The position numbers and the translations under genes are program-made. The notes under the pieces were generated by a model. The model was not told where the DNA came from and searched no databases. It was given only the letters and a program-made list of their open reading frames with translations. A stretch of DNA of 63,768 bases, the filler included, from Folioceros fuciformis (Eukaryota), in assembly GCA_049999805.1 (NCBI GenBank). It is 25 parts of 25 records of this genome, joined end to end, with 100 filler letters (N's around TTAATTAATTAA, not from the genome) between each part and the next. Parts side by side here need not be neighbours in the genome. Positions count along the whole stretch, not along the records: positions 15,252 to 16,280 come from JBNGIO010000030.1; 24 more parts are not named here. One strand, written 5' to 3'. Positions 1-27,044 of this stretch are shown one piece after another; positions within the stretch are counted from its first letter, which is position 1; each line of letters begins with the position of its first letter.

Positions 1-470
1 GTCCTCCTGTGATCAATGAGACTCCTGTCGAGCAAGGTCTGGAATTCACCTCGAAACTCGTTACCCTGGTCTGTGAGCACTTCCGCGCAGCTCCCAAATC
101 GGCTGAGCACACACTGCAGAAACGCTCTGCTAGTGTAGTGTGAAGTTCTCTGTGGCAAGAACGCTACTTCAACCCACTTAGAGAAATGCTCAATCATGAC
201 CATGCAATGTCGGTTACCTTGCTTTGTGAGGGGAAGCTCTGGCATAAGGTCAACCGACCATCTAAAGAATAGCCCCCTGATTGGTAGGGAGTGCAACACC
301 ACATCCTGGGTGTTAAATCGGGCTTTGACTGCATCACATGTAGCACACTTAGCAACCACCTTCTCGACATCTGCATACATCCCTGACCAGAAATACGTGC
401 TTTTCAGCATGTGGTGTGTCCTCTTCACACCAAAGTGGCCAAGGGTTTCGTGCACCTTGGTCACTATGCC
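1..470 (-). other. Integrase domain (HHCC zinc finger plus first two Asp of DDE core)
   Basis: VHETLGHFGVKRT...YFWSGMYADV..CATCD...RWSVDL...IEHFSKWVE...VLTDQGNEF. Confidence 0.92.
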
Positions 471-3400
471 CACTCTTTCCTCATGACTTGGTACTTTCCT
501 CACGAGTTCTCCTTCTAACAGTAGCAGCTCACCATTTTTCCATGAGTATTTGGCCACGCGCCTTCTGAGTTTAGCCAAGCCTGCTTCAGTCATTCCAGGC
601 ACTGTGCCTTCCTTCAGCAACTGTAGGGCTTGAGGATGTCTCCAAACATCCCTGACGGACTCTGTCAACACATGTCCTTCTTCATGCTCACCTGTCCTGG
701 CCATGAGTGCCATGAAGCTGCTGGGTGCACCATCTACGTGCCCCTCGTCCTGTCGAGCTCCTGTGACATCCTTGTCACTGTCCAGCGGATTTCTGCTTAG
801 CCCATCTGCATTGTGATGTACCTTGCCTGCCCTGTGCACGATCTCCATATCGTACTCAGATAGTAGCAGTGCCCATCTGGCTAGCTTACCACTTAACTTC
901 ATGTTGGTCATCAGCCAATGAAGTGGCTGGTGATCTGTGACCAGTTGAAAACGCCTTCCATACAGATAGACCCTGAAATGCAGAACTGCCCATACCGCAG
1001 CAAGACACTCTCCCTCATATGAGGAGTAGTTCACTTCAGCGGAGTTGTTAGATCGGCTTGCATAAGCTATCACTCGCTCAACACCATCTGCAATGTGCCA
1101 TACATGAACCTCTTTCGTCACACTCTTGGTGGACAGTTCAGTATCCACAGCGGCCATGCTGAATCTCTCGCGCAGCAGCTCGTCTTCCTCTGCCTTAGGA
1201 ACCTCTTTATCCTGCAGTAGTTGGAGGAAAGGCCTTCGCTTCCCTTCGGCTTTTGCAAGTTGGAACGCCAAGCCTGTGCTTACCAGCCACCTTAGACTGT
1301 ACAAGTCAAATGCCTGTCCGAGCATCCTGCACCTTGCAGATTCTGTGATGCCCATGGTCTGAGTGTCCTTCTTGGCAAAGCCCATCGCTTGCTCGCGTTC
1401 CTCAACATTGAGCTCTCCAAGCTCATTCCCTTTCAAATCCAGAATCACACCATCTCCTCCTGGTCTGAAGGCATAAGATTGCGGTGTGCTCACCAGAGTT
1501 GGCCATGCCCTTCTGGATTCCCCTACTCGATTCACAGGGTAAAATGGCAACTTGTCCATCCTCTTCACCTGTTGTGAGCACCTTCCCAACTCTAGGATAT
1601 CATCCACAACCTTCCGCTTTGGAGTTGTCAAATTCCTGTGCTGTCTGAGCACCTCCAGTCCAGCCACATTTGTCCAGTAACTGCGAAGCCTGTGTGCATA
1701 TGAGCCACACTGCACCGCGTCCATGATCAGCTCATTGCCGAACCACGCCCGAATCTCTTCATACAGGGCCCTAACAGCTGGACGTTTGTCCATGGCTGCA
1801 CACACATTCTCCAGAATGTACCAACATCGTGGATTCGCAATCTGGACTTCTCGCGTGATTCGTGCGAGCTCAGCAGCCAACGAAACGCCTTCACCGTTGC
1901 CTCTGCCTGCTGTCGAAAATGTCTTGCATTCCCATCCCGCGATCAGCATATCCACTGGGCTTGACAAGGCTTGTAGCTGCCGCTTCCCAACCAGGTTCAC
2001 GTCTGTGGGCAGCCTGCTCTGACAGCCTCGAACTGCTTCCTCGCTCAGTAGTGTTGGATACTGTTTGCAGAACCTGAGGATTCGACCCCTAGCGACAGCT
2101 CGAATCTTCTCATCCTTCTCCACGCAGGTATATTGCCGTATCTTGACGCCACACTGCAACACCGCTTCCAGGCCACTGCTGATTCCCGAGCAGAGCTCCA
2201 ACAAATGGATGCCTTGAGCGCCCACCTTCCATCGTACTAGAGCATCGTCGATGCGTCGATCTCCCGACTTGGCAGGCCCCATACCTGGGATCGACCTCTC
2301 AGGACATGTGTCTGTGAGATTCCACGGTCGATCCTCCTTCCTTCGCTGGTTCTCTCGAACCCTCGCTTGATCCAAATATTCTGAGCGCACCACCTTAAGC
2401 ACACCCTTCTGCTCTCTTGGCTTTGGCATCTCCAGAGAGGATAACTCCTGCGTTTCCTCCCACATCTCATGTCGATGTTCACTCTGAGCACTGCGGGCAA
2501 TCATGGTGCTACCTGTCATCCTCGTCCTGCTCTTGCCACCACTCCTATTCATCCTTAGAGGAATTCGTGCAACATGCGTGAAATCTCCTCTCCACCAAAA
2601 TGGTCTGTAGAAAGCTTCAGCGTGCAAGGGATCAACCCCCATGGCAGGACGGTGAGTTCCGTCCGACCCCAGCAAGACATCATATGTCTTCGCACTGGTG
2701 ACCAAACATCTCACTTCAACGATGCTGGCATCCTTCGTGCCAGGCTTCAATTCAATCTTCACGGGCCTCCTCGTCATTCCCAGTACCTGTTCCTTGGTAC
2801 CTGCAGAGGTGGTGATGTTCACGTCGCTCGGAACGAGCTTGTGTCCGTACAGCTTTAGTGCCTCCTGCACCCGTGCTCCCAGCAGTACCGGATCCGCTCC
2901 TGTGTCTACAAGTACGTTTACTGGAGCATAGCCATCAAAGGTCACGTGCCGTCCCGTGTTATCAATCATGGCAACACCTCCTCCACCTCGCGCCTCTGGC
3001 ATCAGATGCTCGCCACACAAACTGGCCATACTAGGGAGAGATCCTGCGGATTCAAGCTCCTTTCTCAGCCATTCTCGCATGATGTTTTTGAAGTTGTTGC
3101 CTTTCACTCCCAGATCCACAAGACTTACTGCAGGCACCTCCATGGCCTTGTCCAGCAACGCCTCAACGTCTCGACCTGATCTTGACACCTTCTGTGTCGT
3201 GGAGTTTCCCTCGACCTGCCGGAAACTCTCCGGCATCTTGGTCGATTCCCGTTCCGGCACTCCCTTCGCAGTGACGCCTTCACCAAAGTTAGCAACAGCC
3301 TTTTTCTTTTTCTTGCGCACCGCCATCATGCCAAATGCCTCATCATCATTAGAGTCAGAGAACAAAATCCTCTGCTCTATTCTGCTGGCCATGTTGGCCA

Positions 3401-4325
3401 TCTCCTTCTTGAGCTCCTCCACTTGCCCAAGGAGAGCCTTACGACTCGGGCCCTTGCCCTTCTCGTTCTCAGCTGATGCAAGCTTGGGCTTCAGCTCTGG
3501 ATGAGCTTCCCAACACGCTGCCTCCATGTGACCCCATCTGCCACAAGACTTACAGGCTTCCTTGCCCTTCGGACCACCTGGCTTGTAGTCGCATTCGAAC
3601 GCCTTGTGCGCTCCACAGCATCTGCCACACTTCACAGCTGCTTGACCTGCATTGTTAGCTGGCCTCTCCTTCGGCGCATGTGGCTGCTTGCCATGTCCTG
3701 AGGACTGTGCTTGCTCCCGGTACTGGTACCTTGGAACAAACCTGGAATTCCCGTGTCCTCCAGACCCGTGCTGCGAGGAGCCCTTCACGACTCCGTGATT
3801 TTCCAAGTAAGCCTGGCTTACTGCATCTCCTTTGAGCACCTTCTCAGCAATTTGGTAGGCGTCTATCAACTGATATCTTTCTCCCATCGCTCCATGCAGC
3901 GAGTCCATTACCTTCCTTCTTTGTCTGGCAGGCAATGCTGCTATGAAGATCTTGGCAGCCTCCCTCATCGTCTTCACTTCCGTGTCTTCCACCAGAACCT
4001 TCAGTCTGAGGTAAGATGCACGCAATGTCTCGTTAGGCCTGAAAGAAAACCTCGACAGTTCCTGGATCTTTTCCAGTGAAGCTGTAGGAAACATGGTGGT
4101 TAACTTGGCGAACATCAAGTCCACCAGATGCTCGAGCTTGTCCTCGTCAGTAGGGGGTGCAGTCGAACCAGCCCTCTTGGCCGCCTCGTGCACTGCTTCT
4201 CTTCTCTCGGCCACCTTCAGGATCCCAGCCTTCTCATCTCTGTAATACATTAGAGCCTCACCCGCAAGGTAGGATGACATCTTCATGAACGCCATCCTCT
4301 GAGTGAACTCGTCCTTGTATTTCAT
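3..4325 (-). CDS. Gag-PR-DNMT-(partial RH)-IN polyprotein, over 1440 aa, open at the window edge
   Basis: Manual translation found no stop from ~4427 to base 3. Motifs: CGRCCGAHKAFEC and CKSCGRWGHMEAAC knuckles, VLVDTGA protease, DNMT motifs, VIAYASRS/YEGECLA/TDHQPL/NADGLSR RNase H, HETLGH..CATC zinc finger, WSVDL and LTDQG integrase core. Confidence 0.9.
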   Translation of the reverse strand, partial: MKYKDEFTQRMAFMKMSSYLAGEALMYYRDEKAGILKVAERREAVHEAAKRAGSTAPPTDEDKLEHLVDLMFAKLTTMFPTASLEKIQELSRFSFRPNETLRASYLRLKVLVEDTEVKTMREAAKIFIAALPARQRRKVMDSLHGAMGERYQLIDAYQIAEKVLKGDAVSQAYLENHGVVKGSSQHGSGGHGNSRFVPRYQYREQAQSSGHGKQPHAPKERPANNAGQAAVKCGRCCGAHKAFECDYKPGGPKGKEACKSCGRWGHMEAACWEAHPELKPKLASAENEKGKGPSRKALLGQVEELKKEMANMASRIEQRILFSDSNDDEAFGMMAVRKKKKKAVANFGEGVTAKGVPERESTKMPESFRQVEGNSTTQKVSRSGRDVEALLDKAMEVPAVSLVDLGVKGNNFKNIMREWLRKELESAGSLPSMASLCGEHLMPEARGGGGVAMIDNTGRHVTFDGYAPVNVLVDTGADPVLLGARVQEALKLYGHKLVPSDVNITTSAGTKEQVLGMTRRPVKIELKPGTKDASIVEVRCLVTSAKTYDVLLGSDGTHRPAMGVDPLHAEAFYRPFWWRGDFTHVARIPLRMNRSGGKSRTRMTGSTMIARSAQSEHRHEMWEETQELSSLEMPKPREQKGVLKVVRSEYLDQARVRENQRRKEDRPWNLTDTCPERSIPGMGPAKSGDRRIDDALVRWKVGAQGIHLLELCSGISSGLEAVLQCGVKIRQYTCVEKDEKIRAVARGRILRFCKQYPTLLSEEAVRGCQSRLPTDVNLVGKRQLQALSSPVDMLIAGWECKTFSTAGRGNGEGVSLAAELARITREVQIANPRCWYILENVCAAMDKRPAVRALYEEIRAWFGNELIMDAVQCGSYAHRLRSYWTNVAGLEVLRQHRNLTTPKRKVVDDILELGRCSQQVKRMDKLPFYPVNRVGESRRAWPTLVSTPQSYAFRPGGDGVILDLKGNELGELNVEEREQAMGFAKKDTQTMGITESARCRMLGQAFDLYSLRWLVSTGLAFQLAKAEGKRRPFLQLLQDKEVPKAEEDELLRERFSMAAVDTELSTKSVTKEVHVWHIADGVERVIAYASRSNNSAEVNYSSYEGECLAAVWAVLHFRVYLYGRRFQLVTDHQPLHWLMTNMKLSGKLARWALLLSEYDMEIVHRAGKVHHNADGLSRNPLDSDKDVTGARQDEGHVDGAPSSFMALMARTGEHEEGHVLTESVRDVWRHPQALQLLKEGTVPGMTEAGLAKLRRRVAKYSWKNGELLLLEGELVRKVPSHEERVGIVTKVHETLGHFGVKRTHHMLKSTYFWSGMYADVEKVVAKCATCDAVKARFNTQDVVLHSLPIRGLFFRWSVDLMPELPLTKQGNRHCMVMIEHFSKWVEVAFLPQRTSHYTSRAFLQCVLSRFGSCAEVLTDQGNEFRGEFQTLLDRSLIDHRR
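790..1087 (-). other. C-terminal half of Ty3-type RNase H
   Basis: DGVERVIAYASRSNNSAEVNYSSYEGECLAAVWAVLHFRVYLYGRRFQLVTDHQPL...NADGLSR. The N-terminal DAS motif is absent. Confidence 0.9.
1280..2213 (-). other. C5-cytosine DNA methyltransferase domain within the polyprotein
   Basis: Motifs in canonical order: I GIHLLELCSGISSGLEAVL (~2165-2213); II YTCVEKD; IV VDMLIAGWECKTFS (Cys codon 1926-1928); VI YILENV (~1803-1820); VIII DAVQCGSYAHRLRSYWTN (~1669-1722); IX EEREQAMGF (~1377-1403); X LGQAFD (~1305-1322). Confidence 0.9.
2660..2920 (-). other. Retropepsin aspartic protease domain
   Basis: NVLVDTGADPVLLG (DTG at 2898-2906) and C-terminal YDVLLGSD. Confidence 0.85.
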
Positions 4326-4609
4326 CTTGTTTTTTCCGCCATTGCCCAACGAAACTTCTCCTCGAAATCTGCAAGAGACATGCTTCCATGTTTTCCTGTG
4401 AAGACATCGTTCTTACTTGGTGTGAACTCAAGCTCCATTCTTGCAGACTCTCCGCTCCAATCGCCAAACTGTCTCCTTGTGACTGGCGCGTTGTCTCTGT
4501 ATTGTTCCGGTGTCCTCTTGAATGGCGAGTAGTAGTCGTCGTGCACTTCTCCGACTGAAGACGGCACAGGTGTCCTTTCGTCAGTCCACCCTGATCTCAG
4601 GAACACCAT
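4322..4609 (-). CDS. Probable Gag N-terminus, separated from the main frame by a 1-nt shift in an A6 run (~4330-4335)
   Basis: MVFLRSGW...FTGKHGSMSLADFEEKFRWAMAEK resembles a gag start. A -1 shift continues into NKMKYKDEF of the long frame. Confidence 0.6.
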   Translation of the reverse strand: MVFLRSGWTDERTPVPSSVGEVHDDYYSPFKRTPEQYRDNAPVTRRQFGDWSGESARMELEFTPSKNDVFTGKHGSMSLADFEEKFRWAMAEKTR

Positions 4610-5004: not shown

Positions 5005-5158
5005 TGTGGTGAAATCAAGCTGGAAAATTCTCCCAACCTGGCATTGCAACGAACCACAAGAACCTCTAGGAGACAAAGACACAGCAGGGACGAAGTATGG
5101 CTGTCTATTGGAACAAGACAAACATCAACAATCCGAGAATCCATGGCTGGGTGCCTAC

Positions 5159-5165
5159 ATATATA
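5159..5165 (-). promoter_or_regulatory. TATA box (TATATAT) of the LTR promoter; predicted TSS ~5135
   Basis: Minus strand CCTATATATGT, 30 nt upstream of the PBS-complementary sequence. Confidence 0.6.
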
Positions 5166-5636
5166 GGCAAAAACCCCCAGGAGTTCTTGATGAAGTGTCC
5201 ACCCGTATCGATGGTGGGCACTTTATAATCCTACTTTCCTTGATTTATGATTTTTATGTATTTTTTAATATCTTCTAATATAAATCTGCTATCTATATAT
5301 GTGACATAGCACCGCACCTTTCATGCACAACCATGCATATAGGTTATATGCGCCATGACACATCACCTGCCACATGTCCACATACATCACATGTCATCCT
5401 TCATCTCCATATACATGCATACATGGCACACATGCATACATAGCATACATGCATATATGGCATACATATCATGTACAGGCCATCCATGGGCCATGTACAT
5501 AACATCATAAGCATCAGGGCTTATGCCCGAGATGCTCCAGTCAGATGCTCCAGTCAGTATCTAGTCATCAGGGCTTATGCATCAGGGCTTATGCCCAGGA
5601 TGCTCTGTTTCCCATACAGCAACAGCATGACAGCCA

Positions 5637-13887: not shown

Positions 13888-14061
13888 AAGTGTGAGTTCC
13901 AGGCATTCCGCTGTTAGAAGTGTTGGGTATAAAACCCTAACATAGCTTATGGCTTAGGTTANNNNNNNNNNNNNNNNNNNNNNNNNNNNNNNNNNNNNNN
14001 NNNNNTTAATTAATTAANNNNNNNNNNNNNNNNNNNNNNNNNNNNNNNNNNNNNNNNNNNN

Positions 14062-15151
14062 CCGCCAGACTGCTAACGTGGCTGTCAAAGGCAAGACTGA
14101 AGACACCAAGACGGTGAAGATCCTCACCGTCTGTCTAAGCACCCAGCCGCAGCCAGACCAAGGGTGGTACTTGGACAATGGTGCCACCGCCCACATCTGC
14201 AACGACGACGCCCTCTTCTCCAAGCTGGACCGACGCCCCATCAGAGAGAGGGTTCTTCTCGGCGACGAGAAGAACAAGTCCAGCCTGCCCATCCACGGCC
14301 AAGGGACCTGCGAGCTATCCCTGTCTGATGGCTCTACATTGACTCTCGAGCCCGTCCTCTGTGTGCCACAGATGGGAAAGAACCTCGTGTCCCTCAGCCA
14401 GCTATTGCAGCACAGTCCACTGGAAGTAAACTTCTCCCGCGACTCCTGCTGTTTTTATAGACCAGCCAGTCCTAACTTGTGTCTCTTGGGAGCCATCCCC
14501 CAAGATGGTCTGTACAGACTTATTCTGAATGGCAAACAAGGACCATTTGCTTACGCCGCTAGACAGTCAGCCGAAGACCTGGCTGCGTCTGAAGAGCGAG
14601 ACGTTCACATACTTCAGTGAGTGGCTTTCAGTGGCTGAACGCCAGGCTGACCAGAAACTGAAGACCTTGTGGAGCGACAATGGCACGGAGTTTGTTAACC
14701 ACGAGTTTGATGTTTTCCTCCTGGAGTGAGGAATTCAGAGACAACTGACAGTACCTTACACTCCACAGCAGAATGGAGTAGCGGAGCGCAAGAACCGGAC
14801 GCTTCTATCCATGACCAGGAGGATGCTGCTATGGTCTGGACTTCCACAAGGCTTCTGGGCTGAGGCGATTGTGGCAGCAACCTATATCTTGAACCGAGTC
14901 ATCACAAGCTCAGTTCTCGGCCGTACCCCCTACGAGGTATATTGGCAGCGCAAGCCCAGCATTCAGCATCTACGGGTATTCGGCTCGCCCGCCTTCGCCC
15001 ACATCCCTGCCCAGAAGGAACGCAAGTTGGATGATAGGGCAAAGAAGCTTATTTTTGTGGGCTACAGCGAGAGCTCCAAGGCCTACAAGCTCTTTGACCC
15101 GGGGACGCACAACATCACCCTGGCGCGCACAATCACCTTCCTGGAGCCAGT
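14062..15151 (+). mobile_element. Ty1/copia protease-integrase fragment with internal deletion and frameshift
   Basis: WYLDNGATAHIC protease; LKTLWSDNGTEF, QQNGVAERKNRT and FWAEAI integrase. The pre-integrase zinc finger and first integrase Asp are missing at ~14585. Confidence 0.9.
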
Positions 15152-15522
15152 NNNNNNNNNNNNNNNNNNNNNNNNNNNNNNNNNNNNNNNNNNNNTTAAT
15201 TAATTAANNNNNNNNNNNNNNNNNNNNNNNNNNNNNNNNNNNNNNNNNNNNAACTTCCTTGGAAGGACAGGATGAAGAAGATAAGTTGTGGGTTGTGCAT
15301 TAGATGCAAAAATTGTGTGCTAAAGAGTGCAGTGGCGTAAAGTTGGAGGAGGATTCAATGAGAGCAAATGTTGCTAAAACATTGGCTGGAACTTTAAGAG
15401 AACTTGAAAAGAGGTAGACTAAATTTCAGCTAGATGATAAGATTCAGCCCTATGCAAAGCAGGCAGTCTGTAAATTGGAACCTATTTATAATAAAATTAT
15501 GACTTTGAGTTCATCTATGTAT

Positions 15523-16190
15523 GGACTGGTCATGCTTGAGCTATTTACTGGAATTGTATTTGGTTTGGAGGCTGTGTTGGTTGTTGGCTATGTAGTTAAG
15601 CACTACATTTATTGTGATCCATATGAAGTTTATTAGGCAATTGCAAAGGCTAGGTTGTTTCAGTTGTGTAAGAAATGAACAAAAGGCTAGCACTAAGACA
15701 AGATTTTGAAGAAATCAAGTATTATTTGGGAGAACCTATAGAGTTGGATGCGGTGCAATTTGGATAAAGGGCTCACTGACTTCAGTGTCTCTAAAATAAC
15801 TTGATGCGCAAGTATTTGTTGCAAAGGCACGTAGATAATTGACATATGAATGAGGAGTTGATAGTTTATCAGACTTTAGATGAGGGGCAAGTAAGTGGGC
15901 AAGTAGTCTCATATGATAGACAACCCTTTTTTTTTGTGAAAAAAGAGTGAGCTTAGAAGGGCATGACCAACATTTCTTAGTTGTGAAAATGCTAATGCAT
16001 TTAAAGGAATTGGACCTGGAATGGTATTTGATACCATAAGAAATATATATAGGATGTTTCGTCACCCATGGAGAGGGAAAGGGCTATGGGTTTTGATATG
16101 GACACCACTTATGCAGAGGGCATAACATTTGAGTAGAGGAAAAAGTAGCTTGGGCAAGCTATGGATTTGAATACCATTAACTGGATTATA
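15523..16190 (+). pseudogene. Decayed C5-DNA methyltransferase, homolog of the domain at 1280-2213
   Basis: GLVMLELFTGIVFGLEAVL..VKHYIYCD (I/II); LGEPIELDAVQFG*RAH*L (VIII); RRA*PTFLS..NAFKGIGPGMVFD; ERERAMGF (IX); LGQAMDLNTINWI (X). Motifs IV-VI are deleted near 15680; many stops. Confidence 0.85.
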
Positions 16191-16541
16191 CTGTCAATAA
16201 AAGTTTATCAGGAGTGAAAACGGAAATGGAAAATTATTTTGAATACAAGAATAAGAAAGAGAAGTTTGTGTGAAGCAAGTNNNNNNNNNNNNNNNNNNNN
16301 NNNNNNNNNNNNNNNNNNNNNNNNTTAATTAATTAANNNNNNNNNNNNNNNNNNNNNNNNNNNNNNNNNNNNNNNNNNNNATAAGCACTGGAAATTTTCC
16401 TTGCGATTTGTACTTAAGTCCTAGATGCTGTGTTCCCTTCAGGTAGCGTAGGACTCTTTTAACTCCTGTCCAGTGTGCTGTGCCAGGGTCAGAGAGGAAC
16501 CTGGAGAAGACTCGTGCAGCTGGAGCTACATCAGGCCTCGT

Positions 16542-19500
16542 TCATCCACTGATCCAGATAAGGCATCCCGTTAGCATACTGTAGGGTTTCTTTGCCATTT
16601 CCAACTTCTCTGCTTCTGTTTTTGGACTCTGGTCTGTGGAGAACTTCTCTCCCACAGCCATTGGAGTGATAGCTGGCTTGCAGTCTGTCATGATGAATCT
16701 TTCTAGCATTTGTCTCACGTAGTGTGCTTGGTGGCAGAAAATACTACTCTTGTCGGGACTGATCACTATCTGTATGCCTAGGAAGAAAGTGAGCTGTCCC
16801 AAATCCGTCATGGAAAATTCAGCAGTGAGGATGGACTTTACTTTCTTCATGATGTCTGGAGAGTTAGCAAATATCAGTGCATCATCGACATACAGTGCCA
16901 AGATGGCAAATAATTGCCCTTGCCTCAGGATGTATACATTTGTGTCAGCATCACTCTGGGTGAATCCAGATTTTACCAGGTAAGCATGGATCTTTTGATA
17001 CCAGATCCTTGGTGCTTGCTTTAAGCCGTACAGGCTCTTTCTTAGTTTGCATACCTTATGTGGTTCTGACTTGCTGACATAACCCTCAGGCTGGGTGATA
17101 TACATCTCCTCGTCTATTTCACCGTGCAGAAAGGCAGTCTTGACGTCCATCTGGTGAATATCCAGTTTGCACTCAGCAGCCAAGGCAAAGAGCATTCTTA
17201 CTGAAGAGGCTCGTACGACAGGTGAGAATGTCTCATGGAAATCCAGTCCTTCGACCTGTTTGTATCCATGAACAACATACCTTGCCTTGTATCTCGCTAC
17301 TGACCCATCGGGGTTCAACTTCTTCTTGAACACCCACTTTCCTGTGAGTGGTTTGCGTCCTGGAGGCAGGTCTACCAGCTCCCAAGTTTGGTTGTCGATG
17401 AGAGACTGATATTCAGAGTCTATACCCACCTTCCAGAGCTTACCTTCTGGAGAGGACAATGCTTCCTTCAGTGTGGCAGGTTCTCCGAGGTCCTGGGCTG
17501 CCATCAGGGCGCATGCAACATAATTACGAGGTATGTGCAAGTCCTGAGCTCCAGGGGCATCTGAGCTGGATGCGAGGTTTGCATGTTTTCTTCGATGCTC
17601 CTCATCCAGTTCATAGCTTAGCGGTTTGTGAGTCCACTGACTTGGATCCGTTGTATGTGTCCTTGCAGATCTCCTGGGTTCCTGCGGTGCTTGAACCACT
17701 TCTTCAGCAGCCTGGGAGTGAGGCTGCTCCTGGTTCTCCTCAGTTTCAGATGGAGGAGAATGTGGGGGACTGTTGTCAGTCTCATTGTCATATTCCTCAT
17801 GCTGAGGCTTGTTGTCCTGGTCGCTTGTCTCCGAGGTAGAGTCATCAGCAGTGAGGTCAGGTTCATCTTCCGGGAAGGCAGCAGCAGGCTGTTCAGCGGC
17901 AGAGTGTGCTGGCTGAGAGGTAACCAAGTGCTCATCATGTGTTGAAGATGCATCTTGTTCATCAGTTGTGAGGCGTTCCAGGCCAGGTACGTCTCTGCTC
18001 TTTTCTGAGGCTTGCAGAAGAAACTGCTCATCAAAGATAACATTTCTGGCATGCAGGAAACGACGATTCAGGGGGTCATAGAGTTTGTAGCCTTTGATGC
18101 CCTCTGTATAACCAATGAACAGATGTTTGGTTGCCTTGAAGTCCATCTTGCGTCTGACTTCATCAGGTGTATGGGCATATGCTGGGCAGCCCCAGATCCG
18201 CAAATGGTCCACTCGAGGTTTGACACCAGTCCATCTCTCAAAGGGTGTGGCGTCAGCAAAGGCACGAGTGGGTAGCTTGTTTTGAATGTAGACGGCTGTG
18301 GCAACAGCTTCTGCCCAGAAGCACCGGGGAAGCCTGGCAAGATGCAGCATAGATTTGGCAGCAGCTTGGGTGACCTTGTTTTTGTTCTCAGGCAGAGGGT
18401 TTTGCTCATGCTCGTAGGGAACGGTAAGTTGCCGTAGAATACCCTCCCGTGAGCAAAAGTCGGTGAATTCTCCTGAGGTAAACTCCCCGCCATTGTCACT
18501 TCTCAAGCATTTCAATTTCTGACCTGTAAAGCGCTGGGCATACGAGAGGTACAGCAGAAAACAAGAGAAAGCTTCACTCTTGCGCTTGAGAAAGTAAGTG
18601 ACTGTAAAGCGACTCCAGTCATCAATGAGATGCATGAAGTAGAGGGCACCACTGAGGGAAGGTGTGGACATGGGGCCACAAAGATCAGTGTGCACTGTTT
18701 GAAGTAACTGAGTAGCTCTCGTTGCATCTTGACTGGGATGTGGAGCCTTATGATGCTTCCCTTGTATGCAGGCTTCACAAAAGATGGAAGTCTCTGACTT
18801 GAAGTGAAGAGGTGTCCTGTACAAGGATGAAGCAGGCAGAGTCCGGAGACGTTGAATGTGAACATGTCCCAGTCGGCAGTGCCACAGTTGTGTCTCACTA
18901 GGAGAGCTAATGGCTGTTGCATGAGCAGCTGGTGCCTTCAGCTGCTGGATGGGGTTGCTCTTCAAGTTGAGCTGATATAAGTCATTTTTGAGAGTACATG
19001 TGACCAATAACTGGTGTGGTGCAGCAGCCTCCCGCAGAGCAAGACCATCAGTTGTCATCTCCAGGGTAAGCAGAGGAGGAGACAGGCGTCTTAGAGACAC
19101 CAAATTTTTGGCCATCTGTGGGACAAAGATGACGTCTAACAGAGTGATGGTTTTGCCTTGTGCAGGGTGAAGGACAACTGTGCCAGTGCCCTCAATGCAT
19201 AGCCCACTATCATCACCTAAAAGAACGAAGTGTCCCTTGGGAGAAGACTTGAAAGTGGTAAAGGCTGTGCGAGTGTTGCAGACATGCGTGGTGGCACCTG
19301 AATCTAGATACCAGGCATGTCTGTCTTGAGAAGAAGAGACCATACACACTGTGAGGATGGCCCCTGTACTTTTCTTTGAAGATACATGAGCAGATGGAGG
19401 AGCTTCTCGCTTGGGTTCACCATTCTGCTTCTTACGGCATTCAGATTCCACATGCCCTGGGATCCTACACCATGTGCAAGGACCTCGCTTGGCATTGTTG

Positions 19501-19598
19501 GACTTGGAGGCTGACCATGCAGGGCGAGGAGAGCCTGGTTTGTAAGGTGGGCGATTGCCACCTTGAGCACGCCGTCCTCGTCCTCGAGAAACGAACAT
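16542..19598 (-). CDS. Copia pol (Zn knuckle-PR-IN-RT), prematurely stopped; frame continues past the stop
   Basis: 1018-aa ORF. Readthrough gives *TRPDVA...HWTGVKRVLRYLKGT. Confidence 0.9.
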   Translation of the reverse strand: MFVSRGRGRRAQGGNRPPYKPGSPRPAWSASKSNNAKRGPCTWCRIPGHVESECRKKQNGEPKREAPPSAHVSSKKSTGAILTVCMVSSSQDRHAWYLDSGATTHVCNTRTAFTTFKSSPKGHFVLLGDDSGLCIEGTGTVVLHPAQGKTITLLDVIFVPQMAKNLVSLRRLSPPLLTLEMTTDGLALREAAAPHQLLVTCTLKNDLYQLNLKSNPIQQLKAPAAHATAISSPSETQLWHCRLGHVHIQRLRTLPASSLYRTPLHFKSETSIFCEACIQGKHHKAPHPSQDATRATQLLQTVHTDLCGPMSTPSLSGALYFMHLIDDWSRFTVTYFLKRKSEAFSCFLLYLSYAQRFTGQKLKCLRSDNGGEFTSGEFTDFCSREGILRQLTVPYEHEQNPLPENKNKVTQAAAKSMLHLARLPRCFWAEAVATAVYIQNKLPTRAFADATPFERWTGVKPRVDHLRIWGCPAYAHTPDEVRRKMDFKATKHLFIGYTEGIKGYKLYDPLNRRFLHARNVIFDEQFLLQASEKSRDVPGLERLTTDEQDASSTHDEHLVTSQPAHSAAEQPAAAFPEDEPDLTADDSTSETSDQDNKPQHEEYDNETDNSPPHSPPSETEENQEQPHSQAAEEVVQAPQEPRRSARTHTTDPSQWTHKPLSYELDEEHRRKHANLASSSDAPGAQDLHIPRNYVACALMAAQDLGEPATLKEALSSPEGKLWKVGIDSEYQSLIDNQTWELVDLPPGRKPLTGKWVFKKKLNPDGSVARYKARYVVHGYKQVEGLDFHETFSPVVRASSVRMLFALAAECKLDIHQMDVKTAFLHGEIDEEMYITQPEGYVSKSEPHKVCKLRKSLYGLKQAPRIWYQKIHAYLVKSGFTQSDADTNVYILRQGQLFAILALYVDDALIFANSPDIMKKVKSILTAEFSMTDLGQLTFFLGIQIVISPDKSSIFCHQAHYVRQMLERFIMTDCKPAITPMAVGEKFSTDQSPKTEAEKLEMAKKPYSMLTGCLIWISG

Positions 19599-19659
19599 GG
19601 CTCGTGCAGGATTGCTGGAGGAGGCTCCACGACCACGAGTATGAGTGGCCTCCTCGTTG

Positions 19660-20803
19660 AGCAGGCGCCAATGATATCTGAGAGTGTGATTTGAGATTGT
19701 GTCCCAGCAGCTACTGCGGCTTGAGCTGTTTGTATATGTTGATTCTGAGTACTCACAAAGCTGTTGTATTTTTCTGGTAGTGACATAAGGAGGGCCACTG
19801 CAGCTTGGAGTTCATCAACAGCAGTGCCAGCCGTGATCAGGTTGGTACGTAGCATTCTGAAACGGCTGACGTGATTCTCAACAGTATCTCCATCTCGCAT
19901 TCTCAGATTGTAGAAGACACGTGTAGCATGAACGAGTGTTGTAACACTTTTCTTTTGGTGCACTTGGCAAAGGGAATCCCATATTGCCTTCGAACTGTCT
20001 GCCTCCCGGGCATGAGACATCATGCTTAAGTCCAAAGCAGAATGGATTACGTTTTGAGCACGAAGATCCTTGAGTTTCCAGGCATGCTGGTCTGCTTGAC
20101 TTGCAGCAGTTGCACCTCCAGCAGGTGTTGCTGGCATTGGAGTTGCTCCAGTGACATACTCCCAAAGTTCGAGTTCTTGTAAGATGGTGTGTACCCGAAT
20201 CATCCATATGTCAAAGTGTTGGCCACTAAATCTATCTTTGTCTTTGAAGTCATACTTAAAGTTGTTGACTGTGACGTTTGCAGGAGGATTAGTGCCCATG
20301 GCTGTGTATTGACTAAATTGCGTCTGACTTAGATCAAACAACTGATCAAGATGAAGTGAAGAAGAGTGACTAGATGCTGGTGAATTATGTGAGGACCTTG
20401 GTGTGGAGGCAGAGCTACCAGAAGAGGGAGGCTGAGAGAAAATGACACCGGATGATAACGTGCCTAAAGTGCTTACAGAAGCTAATGCTGGATCTGGAAG
20501 GGTGTACTCGTCTGAGTAGTCGAAGGGATTTTCTGGAAGGACAGGTGTCTGTTCAAACCCAGAAATTGGTGACTCTTCGGATACCACTTCAAATCCAGCA
20601 GTTGGCAGCGTTTCAGGTGCTTCTTCAGATCCGACTCTTTCTGGTGACGTTCCAGATCTTGGGCTTGAAGGTGACGCTTCAGAGCTCGATCTTGGACGCG
20701 ACGTTCCGGGTCTAGTAGGAATCCGGCGCGGTGGCCTCCCGGCTGGGCTTGGATCCCAAGGTTCCGACATGTTCAACCACCATCTTTCTTGATTTCTCTT
20801 CAA
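19660..20803 (-). CDS. Copia gag with long Ser/Pro-rich N-terminal extension
   Basis: FKDKDRFSGQHFDIWMIRV...LWEYVTG...IWDSLC...LLMSLPEKY. IIGA is frameshifted from the expected LLNEE. Confidence 0.85.
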
Positions 20804-21362
20804 GTGTCATCTGTGTCAGGAATGCGGCCACCTCAGAGATGACGTCGTTCTTGGGTCTCCCACCAGGTAGAACGCAGGGCGGCTCTGAGTGGAAATTTGG
20901 CACAGTTTGATGCAGATTGATGAACGCTGTTCTTTCTGGCTCAGTTTCCAGTTGCTGAGCGCTCTGCTGCTTAATCACTCCTTACAGGTGGGCTACCTTC
21001 GTGAACAATGCATTCAGGTCATGAGACAGATGTTTGGCTCTGCAGTTGATGTTGTCAACTTTGTCACGGAGGCGCCCATCCTGGACTTCGCGCATTCGCC
21101 GAAAGTCACACAATGTTGCGTGTGTGTGACGACGCTCCTCAGCGAATAGCTGGTGAAGAGTCCTCAATGCCGGCTGTGGCAGGTCAGGTGCGACCTCAGG
21201 CGCGCTCGCAGATGGATGCAGGTGCGCACTCCTTCCGCAATTGCTGCAAGAGCTCTCAGCTTGGTAAGTGCAGGGTGGTGGACGTGCACTCCGCGGTGTG
21301 GCCTCCGCTATGCTGACTCTGTGTGGATAGAAGGTGCGCCTTGAGCGACCATTGCGAGGCAT
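20712..21362 (-). CDS. Extra ORF 5' of gag, coiled-coil; probably one ~216-codon ORF split by a TAA at 20982-20984
   Basis: The track ORFs 20982-21362 and 20712-20978 are in the same frame. Motif NIx9DLxxLxxxVxHL is shared with ORF 39556-40047. Confidence 0.55.
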
Positions 21363-22541: not shown

Positions 22542-25500
22542 TTAGCTCGCGAGAGAGAAATCTGTGACTCCCAGAGTAGCCATATGTCGCGCATGTGGAG
22601 AGGAAGGCAGAAATTTTGTGAGAAGATCAGCAGGATTCTCCTCTGTAGGGATATACTCAATTTGTACTTCCTTTTCTTGCACAGAGTGGCGAATAAAATG
22701 GTGATGCACCTCGATGTGCTTAGTTCTCGCGTGAAATCGCGGATTGGCAGTCATAGCAATCGTGGACATATTGTCACACGAGATCACAGTGGGCTGAGAT
22801 GGCAGAAACCCTAAACCACTGAGGAAACTGTGTTCCCAAATGGCCTCCTTGGCTGCTTCGGTCAAGGATTTGTATTCCGCTTCCGTCAAGGAGAGGGCAA
22901 CACTAGCTTGTTTCTTTGCAGCCCAGTGCACAGCAGAATCGGAGAGAAGAAAACAGTATGCGGAGATGCTTCGACGAGCATCAGGGTCGGTGGCCCAATC
23001 AGCATCGGCAAAATCACACAGAGCCTGATCCCGAGATCGCCCCCGGAAGCAGAGCCCATACTGTTGAGTGCCTTTCAGGTAACGCAAAATCCGTTTAACG
23101 GCACCCCAGTGCTCCTTTCCAGGATTGTCCATAAATTGAGAAACGACACTAACCGAGTACTGGATGTCCGGGCGAGTCCAGCAGCTGATGTAATTGAGAC
23201 AACCAACTGCATGGCGATAGGGCACTGGAGACATAGCTTACCGATCTGCATCAGTCTGAGGGCACTGATTGCGAGAGAGCTTAGCACCAACTGGGCCAGG
23301 AGTAGAAACAGGCTTCGAAGAATCAAGATGAAATCGTCGAAGAGTCTCTGCAATATACTTAGCCTGATGGAGAAAAATGGTACGAGAGGCTGGCTCACGA
23401 ACCAACTGTACCCCCAAAACGAAAGTAAGTGGACCGATGTCTTTCATGTCATATTTGCTGTGCAGCATCTGCTTTACCCAAGCTAAAAGTTCAGGGTTGT
23501 TTGAAGCCAAAATGGCATCATCGACGTACAACGCCAAAATCACCAGTTTACCATTCTGGGAGTACAAGTAGACATTAGCATCACCAGGATTTTGTATAAA
23601 GCCGATGGACTTAAGGTATTTGTCGATGGCCTTATACCACTCCCGTGCTGACTGCTTTAAACCATAGATGGTCTTCTTTAGTCGATAGACCCAATCTGGG
23701 TGTTCAGGATCCGCAAAGCCCTCGGGCTGCTGCATGTAAATATCCTCTTCTAACTCGCCATACAGGAATGTCGTACAGACGTCCATTTGTTGAAGATCCC
23801 ATTCATAGGCAGCAGCAAGAGCAATGATCATGCGTATAGATTGGGTTTTCACAACCGGACTAAAGGTTTCAGTGAAATCCACACCAGGAATTTGAGTAAA
23901 CCCACGAGCAACAAGGCGAGACTTGTGTCTGGAAATCTGGCCTTCAGCGTTAAGTTTGTGTTTAAATACCCACTTGCAGCTAATAACTTTTCTGCCTGCG
24001 GGAAGAGGACAGAGCTCCCAAGTGGAATTCTTGATGAGTGAATTATATTCATCTTGAATGGACGGCTGCCAGTGATGTTTATCAGGTCCTGTAATGGCCT
24101 CGGTATATGTGCGAGGTTCGAGCTTAGAAAAGGGTTGCTCAGCAGAATCCAGCAAAGCAACGCCAGCTCTTGAATGACGAAAATCAATTGAGGCATATGG
24201 TGGCTCCACCCACTCTGAAGGAGGTGGACGAGACCGACGAGGATATCTTGATTCAGTGGCATCCATGGATGGTGGAATTACCACATGAATTGTAGCATGG
24301 GGAGGCTCCTCAGACGGTATAGCAGGTGAAGCATCTGGAGGAACATCTGAATGGGCATCAGATGTGAAGGAGGAGGTAGGTATACCCGTCGCGGCTTGAT
24401 CCTGCTCAGATGCATGTGGCTGATCTAAAACATCAGCCATACCAACTTGGGAACCAGCAATTTCCCTTTTTAATTGTGGTAAGTAAAAGGAGTCCTGTTC
24501 TTCAGAGAAAACTGCAGATGTATCTGGCCCCAAGGAACCAGGTACAGAAGTAGCAGGGGAATCATCTGAAGGATACTCTGAAACATCTTCATCCTCAAAA
24601 GCATCGATATGTTCAACAGAAGACTGGTTATGTGGCAGAGAATCGAAGAACGGTTTAGCAGGTACGATAATTTCCTTAAAGGTTACACTTCGAGCATAAA
24701 CGGCTTCCTTGGAAAAGGTATCGTACAGCTTGTAGGCTTTCACCTCTTCTCCATATCCGACAAATATAAGTGGCTTCGCTCTGGCTTCCAATTTCTTCCG
24801 TTTGTCCTTTGGAATATAGGCATAAGCGGGAGAACCGAAGACACGAAGGTGGAGGAGACTAGGCTTTCGCCGCCAGACAACCTCAAAAGGTGTCTTATCT
24901 GCCACTGCCTTTGTTAACAAACGATTGAGGATGTAAGTTGCGGTTACCACTGCCTCTGCCCAGAAACCTTTACTTAATCCTGACCACTCAAGCATACTCC
25001 TTGTCATTCCAAGCAGTGTTTGATTTCGTCTTTCCGCGACCCCGTTCTGTTGCTGGGTGTAGGGAATAATCAACTGCCGAAGTATGCCATGATCAGTAAG
25101 GAATTGGGTAAAGTGAGAGTGTACGAACTCTGTCCCGTTGTCTGATCGGAGGCACTTCAAGGAACAACCAGTTTGCTTCTGAACAACAGGCAGCCAGTCC
25201 TTAAAAACACTGAAAGTATCGGACTTCAACCGGATGGGGTAAGTCCATGAATACCTGCTATAATCATCCGTAAGTGTAAAGTAGTACTGGGCTCCTCCCA
25301 AACTAGGAATATGTATCTTACCAGATATATCAGCGTGCACCAACTCTAACACATTGGATGCACGATGAGCGACAGTTCTAGGGAAGGGGAGCTCCTTTTG
25401 TTTAGCAACTACGCATGCATCGCATAAAGGAAGATCCTGGAAACATTTTGGCAGGGGTTCCCTATAACAGGTAAGACCAGAAAGCCTAATCAGTTTATCA

Positions 25501-27044
25501 CGGTTAGCATGACCTAATCTGGCATGCCAAAGACTGGCAACAGCAGCTTGAGAAAGACGTGCTGAATTGATCGAATCCCTAGTTACGCATGTCAGATTCA
25601 TCTGATAAAGATCATGCACTAATTTGCCATCAGCAACGACCTCTTGTCTATCTCCCCCTTTCTTCACTAACACACATCCTGTGGCAGTGAAGTACAGGTC
25701 AAGCTGATGCAAGGATAGAAGCTGGCTAACAGAAAGGAGATTCTTAGCCATATGAGGAACATGCAACACATGATCCAAGTGAAGGACTAAGCCATCAAGA
25801 AGACGAAAACGGCAAGTGCCACTCCCCCTGATGGACAGACCTGTCCGTGTTATCTCATCACCCAAGAGGACCTTATCTCGTAAAGATGAGGACCGGTAGT
25901 GAGTAAATAGCGATTTATCATTGCAAATGTGTGAGGTTGCACCTGAATCTAGGTACCAAACGTGTGGAAGAGATGGGAGAGAGGAGGCCAAGCAAACCGT
26001 CATCACAACGGGAGGTTTGCTGGAAAGGGAAGAAGAACGATCTCGGGTTGCAGTCACGTGAGCTTCAGCCGGACGAACAGGCTTCTCAACTCGACGGGGC
26101 TCACCAGATTTCTTCTTCCTACATTCTCTTTCCCAGTGTCCTTGGATACCGCACCAATTGCATGCACCTACTCGTTTCTGGGAAGTTGAAGGCTTCGAAG
26201 TTGAAGCACCAGGTGAAAATTTGCCTCGTGTGTTCTTGTTCTTAGCATACAGGACCTTGTCAAGTTTTGTGCGTCCCGTATGCTGTGTGGAACTAACACG
26301 GCTTTGCTCCTCTTGCAGCAAAGCACCGACCACATCAGTGAAATTGATGCGCGAAGGAAGACCTAAGGCAACAGCTCTGTCAGCTTCACGGAGGGTAGAC
26401 CCATTGCTGGACACGAACGGTTGGTAGCTAGGAGGCAGACTAGTAAGTAACTGAGCAACAACATCCAAATCTGGAAACGATGAACCCAGATGGATCAATT
26501 GTGCTCGAAGCTGACGAAAACGAAGAATGAAAGGTGAAACTTTTTCTCCCTCTTTGAGTCGTAGAGAAAAGAGCTCGCCTCTCACAGCACACATGGTGAG
26601 AATGTTCTTTACTTCATAAGTTTGCAGCAGTTGGTTCCATATGTCCTCAGCCTTAGAAATAAATGCCACATCTGGGAGGAGAACTTCATCGAGACCACTG
26701 ATCAATACCGCACGAGCGACACTATTCAGGTTCTCTCACCTTGATTTCTCCTCTGATGTGGAAGTTATTGACGGCTTCGTAATTGTCCCATCTACCACAC
26801 CCCACACATGTCTTGCTTGCAGGGCTGCAGTCATACGAACACGCCAGCTTTCAAACTTGGTACCATTGAAGCGATCACGCTCTTTGAATTCAGCAACATA
26901 AGTAGGCTGAGGTAAGACGGCAGAGGGAGTCGGAGGGGGAGAACTGTCTGGAGTGCCTCCCGCGCTCCCGCTGCCACCTTCTCCAAAGCCTCCTCCTCCT
27001 GCACTGAGATCACCTTGCCCTCCGCGTCGGCGCTCGACTGACAT
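22542..27044 (-). mobile_element. Ty1/copia gag-pol, full coding length with two premature stops
   Basis: Three collinear in-frame ORFs (27044-26736, 26705-23238, 23234-22542) carrying gag, CNWCGIQGHWEREC, WYLDSGA, integrase, RT LYVDD and RNase H (ADADWA, TEAEY, CDN, ADLLTK). Confidence 0.95.

Follow-up and report, generated by a model that had tools for sequence, protein, structure and literature searches.

Contig C30 of the hornwort Folioceros fuciformis is, with high confidence as to both its identity and its state, a non-functional remnant of a DNMT3-like cytosine methyltransferase (DNMT) domain from a Ty3/gypsy element of this plant, belonging to a lineage named family B. The whole 1029-bp contig (C30:1-1029) is contained, with a 100% match, in the window, that is, in the entire 63,768-nucleotide stretch of joined contigs that was analyzed. 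When the whole window was searched with the contig-1 polyprotein by tblastn, three colinear pieces were detected in C30: 15523-15675 (39%, E 1.5e-5), 15675-15944 (34%, E 2e-7) and 16071-16211 (43%, E 3.9e-5). Outside C30, the best match elsewhere in the window reached only E 2.7. The top C30 piece scored 49.3 bits; of 500 dinucleotide shuffles, 394 produced a match at all, and the highest of these reached 23.1 bits. The first-pass annotation had aligned this segment motif by motif with the contig-1 DNMT, and all four motifs were located (Table 1). The motif numbers are those we take to apply to DNMTs; they agree with how an intact relative aligns to DNMT3A.

Table 1. Features of contig C30 and of the comparator element on contig 1 (positions in the window)
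Feature	Position	Strand	Remarks
Piece from within pol of a DNMT-gypsy element, family B (whole of C30)	15252-16280	+	both ends are contig ends
Protease-DNMT linker remnant, in frame with motif I, 2 stops	15252-15522	+	74-80% to relatives with protease directly upstream
DNMT N-terminal part, 1 stop	15523-15671	+	motif I, LELFTGIVFGLEAVL, at 15535-15579; motif II region at 15604-15627
Junction of the 277-nt frame-shifting deletion	15671-15675	+	same junction in sibling C5067
DNMT C-terminal part, 8 stops	15672-16196	+	shifted frame at 15940-16036
DAVQFG	15747-15764	+	
RAH	15768-15776	+	immediately followed by a stop
ERERAMGF	16071-16094	+	
LGQAMDL	16149-16169	+	
Domain end and start of DNMT-RT linker, 2 stops	16197-16280	+	sibling C5067 (96%) runs on into RT/RNase H
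Family-A comparator on contig 1, open 1470-aa frame	3-4412	-	Gag-like/PR/DNMT (1274-2213)/RNase H/INT

The segment had also been described as riddled with stops and devoid of motifs IV to VI, and this description held. Thirteen stops were counted in 338 homologous codons. At about 15671/15672, 277 nt are missing; the stretch that relatives have here measures exactly 277 nt in 11 of 19, 275-279 nt in 15 of the 19 and 290-375 nt in the remaining four. Motifs IV to VI are absent because of this single deletion, which took motifs III to VI, including the catalytic Cys and the Glu of ENV. Microhomology at the deletion amounts to at most 2-4 A-rich bases and was not demonstrated. The frame is shifted again by -2 at 15939/40 and by +2 at 16035-36. 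C30 lacks the hallmarks of an active enzyme: motif IV with its Cys and motif VI with its Glu are deleted, and in place of an open frame the region 15523-16190 has three frameshifts and nine of the stops. With the catalytic center lost and the frame shifted and interrupted, no enzyme is made from this copy.

One close sibling, C5067, differs from C30 at 25 of 638 nt; the two share 8 of 10 stops as well as the deletion and the -2 shift. Since these dead features are common to both, we infer that the sequence was duplicated once more after dying, for which segmental duplication and the machinery of another element are both possible. The sibling (C5067:1387-3367) is cut off inside the DNMT domain and there abuts unrelated DNA that, by eye, resembles a decayed PPR gene.

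The DNA of C30 matched at least 37 contigs, itself included (40 of 55 candidates were scored), with 70-81% identity to most of the 36 others and 95-96% to two. The proposal that the DNMT was carried by a retroelement had been tied to protease (PR) and reverse transcriptase (RT) sequences beside its relatives. Both were found: among 23 relatives examined, nine have PR upstream and RT downstream, six have PR only, five have RT only, and three have neither. The two siblings with 95-96% identity each carry one side, PR in C2795 and RT/RNase H in C5067. Three copies (C6341, C5742 and C2927) extend, in broken form, through RNase H (RH), integrase (INT) and PHD, and the order of the family-B element is Gag-PR-DNMT-RT-RH-INT-PHD. 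All 29 family-B copies examined are broken and none is stop-free in the DNMT domain; no intact copy was found among them. Family B formed one clade with 100/100 support in a DNMT tree (IQ-TREE, 38 rows) and again with 100/100 in an RT/RNase H tree (32 rows). A first DNMT tree (FastTree, 85 rows), from which nine near-identical young copies and eight short ones had been left out, had given the family a local support of 0.48. The C30 row includes about 33 wrong-frame codons, which lengthened its branch.

It is extremely improbable that C30 is a processed pseudogene or a decayed paralogue of a host DNMT3 gene. The fold is indeed DNMT3-like, and C30 alone, being short, shows neither PR nor RT; however, PR and/or RT adjoin 20 of the 23 relatives examined, and the host has a DNMT3-like gene of its own, split into exons, on C4480, with the C30 segment not among the close matches of that gene. 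The host loci that are distinct from the elements comprise two DRM, two CMT and one DNMT3-like locus, and the host DRM had its best matches, at 46-54%, across land plants, so that it gave no information on the host lineage. Exons, rearranged DRM motifs, a CMT chromodomain and a lack of retroelement flanks characterize host-type DNMTs, whereas in family B the DNMT lies beside PR and RT. The first-pass annotation had named intron-containing host genes without such flanks as the kind of relative that would overturn its reading; since the relatives lack introns and have PR and RT as neighbors, and the host DNMT genes lie elsewhere, this was not what was found. As a separate observation, the host genome yielded a neochrome beside one canonical phytochrome, in agreement with what PMC4525182 reports for hornworts; the neochrome, a phytochrome-phototropin fusion, is one long open frame (C1350:1-2439). 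By phytochrome exon 1 the host is close to Anthoceros: identity is 99% to an Anthoceros cluster, 94% to Nothoceros and no more than 90% to 29 other sequences, and a tree joined it to Anthoceros with 100/100 support.

That the elements entered the assembly from a contaminating alga or microbe is likewise very improbable, although C30 is only 1 kb long and many database relatives come from environmental samples or algae. Against it stand family-B matches on contigs of 68-628 kb, a complete element of another family (C) with its target duplication inside a 386-kb contig, a decay at CG and CHG that suits a plant host, and named relatives in Marchantia and Sphagnum assemblies. Origin from a retroelement resident in the hornwort is the reading we adopt.

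Several old and abundant families of such elements had been predicted from two DNMT hits. The contig-1 DNMT domain gave 129 matches on 98 contigs of the genome, and the 66 copies examined make up no fewer than four clades: A, which holds contig 1 and older relatives; B, which holds C30; C; and D. Number and abundance were thereby borne out; the age fits family B only. Eleven DNMT domains, all in families A and C, are stop-free and most of them are 98-100% identical to their family reference, and by this identity two of the at least four clades are young. The three families compared (A, B and C) are mutually only 37-40% identical. An intact family-C element encodes a single intronless frame of 2386 aa with the Pfam order PR-DNMT-RT-RH-INT-PHD, including rve and an integrase zinc finger, and a Pfam scan of this polyprotein gave no match to a tyrosine recombinase, DAM or chromodomain. 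The DNMT of the intact relative matched human DNMT3A (E 8e-11) with colinear, unrearranged motifs, and M.HhaI at only E 0.95.

The contig-1 element lost its RT, relative to C6046, by an in-frame 1095-nt deletion between two TGCAGA repeats (window 1087-1092, minus strand). Since its frame is still open after this loss, it looks like a young non-autonomous copy. Elsewhere in the window, long frames at 16542-20806 (minus), 22542-26735 (minus) and 14018-15151 (plus) show, by eye from the ORF list, a copia-type order of protease, integrase and RT. For placement among the REXdb clades (Selgy, Phygy, Chlamyvir), the text of the REXdb paper contains no mention of PHD or methyltransferase.

The AT-richness of C30, which the first-pass annotation had stressed, is real but is mostly a family trait. 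GC is 37.7% in the C30 segment versus 53.0% in the contig-1 domain, and the CpG observed/expected ratio is 0.19 versus 0.61. All 29 family-B copies have a GC content of 36-42% (about 41% in the best kept), and the RT-integrase region of the family has 39-40%; C30 lies about 3 points below the best-kept copies and equals its nearest sublineage. The sense strand of family B is C-poor (C 0.11-0.12, G 0.25-0.30), also along the whole pol region (C about 0.11, G about 0.28), with C at 0.06-0.12 at fourfold sites, and this depletion is much weaker or absent in the measured regions of families A and C. Because the depletion is strand-biased, symmetric decay after insertion cannot have produced the family-B composition.

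Many of the stops had been read as fitting methylation-driven deamination. The transition spectrum as a whole is linked to methylation, whereas the stop list itself is weak. Transitions in C30, with the context taken from 22 relatives and the sites non-independent, affected 40% of CG, 31% of CHG, 20% of CHH and 11% of A/T positions. Tests of CG plus CHG over CHH against four single relatives gave Fisher p values of 0.004, 0.03, 0.04 and 0.08, the last being non-significant. The excess was clear in the two families with an intact copy to supply the context, A and C; in family A the values were 18.5% (CG), 15.7% (CHG), 5.8% (CHH) and 6.4% (A/T). These transition spectra show preferential decay of the copies at CG and CHG after insertion. 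This fits the methylome pattern of A. agrestis, which is reported to have CG and CHG methylation and almost no CHH methylation (PMC10952607). Silencing by host MET1- and CMT-type enzymes may have led to such decay. Of the 13 stops in C30, eight are pure C>T or G>A changes, three of them at CHG, five at CHH and none at CG, so that the list is poor evidence for methylation decay; no clean case of the postulated CGA>TGA change was found in C30. Across copies, 177 stops were counted, including 47 TAG at Gln positions and 19 TGA at Arg positions. Since CHH transitions in C30 exceed those at A/T, part of the C loss goes beyond CG and CHG methylation. The CpG depletion of young copies cannot be assigned, being attributable to the enzyme of the element and to that of the host alike.

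While alive, family B retained its methyltransferase domain. The dN/dS ratio is 0.15-0.18 between family-B sublineages and 0.22-0.75 among closer copies, as expected from selection while the elements were active and neutral decay afterwards. Motif IV is readable as G-W-E-C in 15 of 23 family-B copies, and it is EC instead of PC in all three hornwort families aligned. Families just 37-40% identical all keep the catalytic Cys, the EN in motif VI and the AHR.R in motif VIII. Substitution patterns and alignments show that purifying selection acted on the DNMT domain during the diversification of family B, with its catalytic residues kept.

A protein of Klebsormidium, K. nitens GAQ93235.1, has PR followed by DNMT; it matched family B at 34% (E 2e-52) and C30 directly (E 3e-7). 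It falls into a DNMT clade of 44 sequences (FastTree local support 1.0) together with hornwort, Marchantia, Sphagnum and Closterium sequences. Judging by its PR-DNMT order, GAQ93235.1 is probably one of the KnitGypsy-Dnmt3 copies described by de Mendoza et al. 2018 (PMC5890265). Since the family DNMT groups with this protein, the hornwort elements are of the KnitGypsy-Dnmt3 kind. As described there, KnitGypsy-Dnmt3 has an intronless DNMT3-like domain in the gypsy Pol frame, unrearranged motifs and purifying selection, and the legend gives DIRS-like A-coding-B-A-B repeats with gypsy domains, all as in the hornwort elements. The hornwort elements differ in that their host is a land plant, in their at least four deep clades and 129 matches, and in motif IV, which is WEC instead of FPC. 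In addition, gene models from Marchantia and Sphagnum that are annotated as DNA methyltransferases or hypothetical proteins resemble Gag-PR-DNMT(-RT) pieces of the same lineage.

The same DNMT lineage also occurs in a second architecture, RT-RH-DNMT-INT-PHD, in Haematococcus and many database proteins. Among 144 database relatives, 66 have RT or RH before the DNMT and 11 have PR-DNMT or DNMT-RT, the rest being too short to tell. Its presence in two positions means that the domain moved at least once. In the ESM Atlas, only generic C5-methylase clusters were matched.

The ends of the elements are unusual. In the complete family-C element (C6246), a repeat A (470 bp) is followed by the coding region, a purine tract, a repeat B (111 bp), GC, and again A and B. 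Identity is 97.2% between its two A copies and 96.4% between its two B copies, and an ATCT duplication flanks the element. The B/A junction is a palindrome, CACGACA-GC-TGTCGTG, found exactly at three places in the genome and in decayed form in other families. B-A-B 3' ends are present in C6133, C5455 and C6373. Family-B elements start with TGTCATGAC and end with GCACGACA; the A-coding-B-A-B layout was seen only in part, since the junction is present in one of five clear 3' ends and the other four stop after B. Solo A-B units lie at three loci; two have 4-bp duplications (CTTA and GAGC), and the third seems to be a copy of one of these two. Element ends are TG...CA with a 4-bp target duplication. 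The A/B repeat layout may extend to family A. The 5' end of the contig-1 element lies in window 5089-5634, with TGTCATG at 5632 on the minus strand, and a contig from a separate sequencing run (possibly DNA reads) continues through a B/A-type junction at this end.

Other known systems resemble these elements in part. SymbioDIRS-Dnmt3 of Symbiodinium likewise has a DNMT3 domain in Pol and A-coding-B-A-B repeats (PMC5890265). However, it and other DIRS elements use a tyrosine recombinase, whereas the hornwort polyprotein has a DDE integrase instead, and the insertions have TG...CA ends and 4-bp duplications, which places them outside DIRS/Ngaro. EpiLTRs of Euglena and Cymbomonas, LTR elements of a gypsy-like type, are described as carrying both a chromatin reader and a cytosine methyltransferase (bioRxiv 10.64898/2026.05.21.726589). 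Their DNMT is sister to DNMT4 and accompanied by DAM and a chromodomain; the hornwort elements have a DNMT3-like domain and PHD, and by Pfam neither DAM nor a chromodomain. The text portions of PMC5890265 contain no junction palindrome, target duplication or primer site for KnitGypsy-Dnmt3.

A putative primer site was found within the hornwort elements themselves. In two family-C copies, the stretch right after the 5' A is complementary to the inside of A over 15-18 nt. In family B the same complementarity spans 11-20 nt in 7 of 11 copies, versus 5-8 nt in 60 control 24-mers. In family A it was not found, only 7 nt being complementary when measured against a guessed repeat end. Self-priming LTR elements of the Tf1/Tcn1 type similarly have a stretch 3' of the 5' repeat that is complementary to the inside of the repeat (PMC6317226, PMC2864245); unlike the hornwort elements, they are chromoviruses with ordinary two-LTR ends.

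With the purine tract at the start of B and the primer-like site at the end of A, standard reverse transcription would give BA-internal-BA, with free ends lacking TG...CA. We tentatively propose that reverse transcription is self-primed from the A-complementary site and that the resulting BA-internal-BA cDNA closes into a circle. The DDE integrase would then cut one internal palindromic junction and not the free cDNA ends, yielding an A-internal-B-A-B insertion with a 4-bp target duplication. The methyltransferase of the element could mark the cDNA at its CG sites, the ones within the junction among them. If both circle junctions were cut equally, the mirror form A-B-A-internal-B would be expected; it was found at none of 20 family-B A loci and none of four family-C 5' ends, which counts against the simplest version of the circle.

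By analogy with related elements, there is about an even chance that in the living family-B element the DNMT domain acted on cDNA by CG methylation. The domain sat in the polyprotein between protease and reverse transcriptase; released from Pol within the particle, it could have methylated CG sites of new cDNA, so that fresh insertions were pre-marked. The kept Cys, Glu and Arg and the purifying selection argue for a working enzyme in the living family. SymbioDIRS-Dnmt3 methylates CG de novo, and in the text portions of PMC5890265 these are the only retro-DNMTs for which this is reported. The Klebsormidium domain had no methylase activity in yeast, a result its authors call inconclusive (PMC5890265). 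This inactivity, together with the PC-to-EC change at motif IV in the hornwort families and in 60 of the 144 database relatives (44 have PC), would also suit a non-catalytic role, in which a DNA- or SAM-binding module targeted or protected cDNA together with the C-terminal PHD finger. We consider such a role rather unlikely: the catalytic Cys, EN and AHR.R persist at such low identity between families, and the related DIRS-borne Dnmt3 domains do methylate CG de novo (PMC5890265).

A 2019 review states that such elements are absent from land plants such as tracheophytes (PMC6338049), and two later papers, in the parts of their text available, give the range as "streptophytes" only (PMC12344493; bioRxiv 10.64898/2026.05.21.726589). 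A literature search that reached few subscription papers found no report of DNMT3-gypsy elements in bryophytes or other land plants, although supplementary trees may hold bryophytes. Within the same limit, it found none of an end anatomy with A-coding-B-A-B repeats, a palindromic B/A junction, a 4-bp duplication and a self-complementary primer site. The DNMT3-gypsy family is apparently unreported in land plants and was by all appearances recently active, and its end structure suggests an unusual integration route.

The C30 copy itself is an ordinary dead relic, and the interest lies in the family. With at least four hornwort clades, two of them with young stop-free copies, it offers new natural enzymes with which to find out what the DNMTs of retrotransposons do. 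Relatives are at hand in Marchantia and Sphagnum gene models, the hornwort host type has a published methylome, and the integration route indicated by the repeat layout is open to testing. Tentatively, and with somewhat less than even confidence, we suggest that the DNMT3-gypsy elements form a green-plant lineage of ancient origin, which all three bryophyte groups have kept and which was recently mobile in hornworts, and that may be self-priming, integrate a circular intermediate and carry a writer (DNMT3) and a reader (PHD) of its own. Elements with such an odd repeat layout would probably escape ordinary two-LTR finders. If the suggestion is true, this would be an LTR retrotransposon that integrates through a circular intermediate and brings along its own epigenetic writer and reader.
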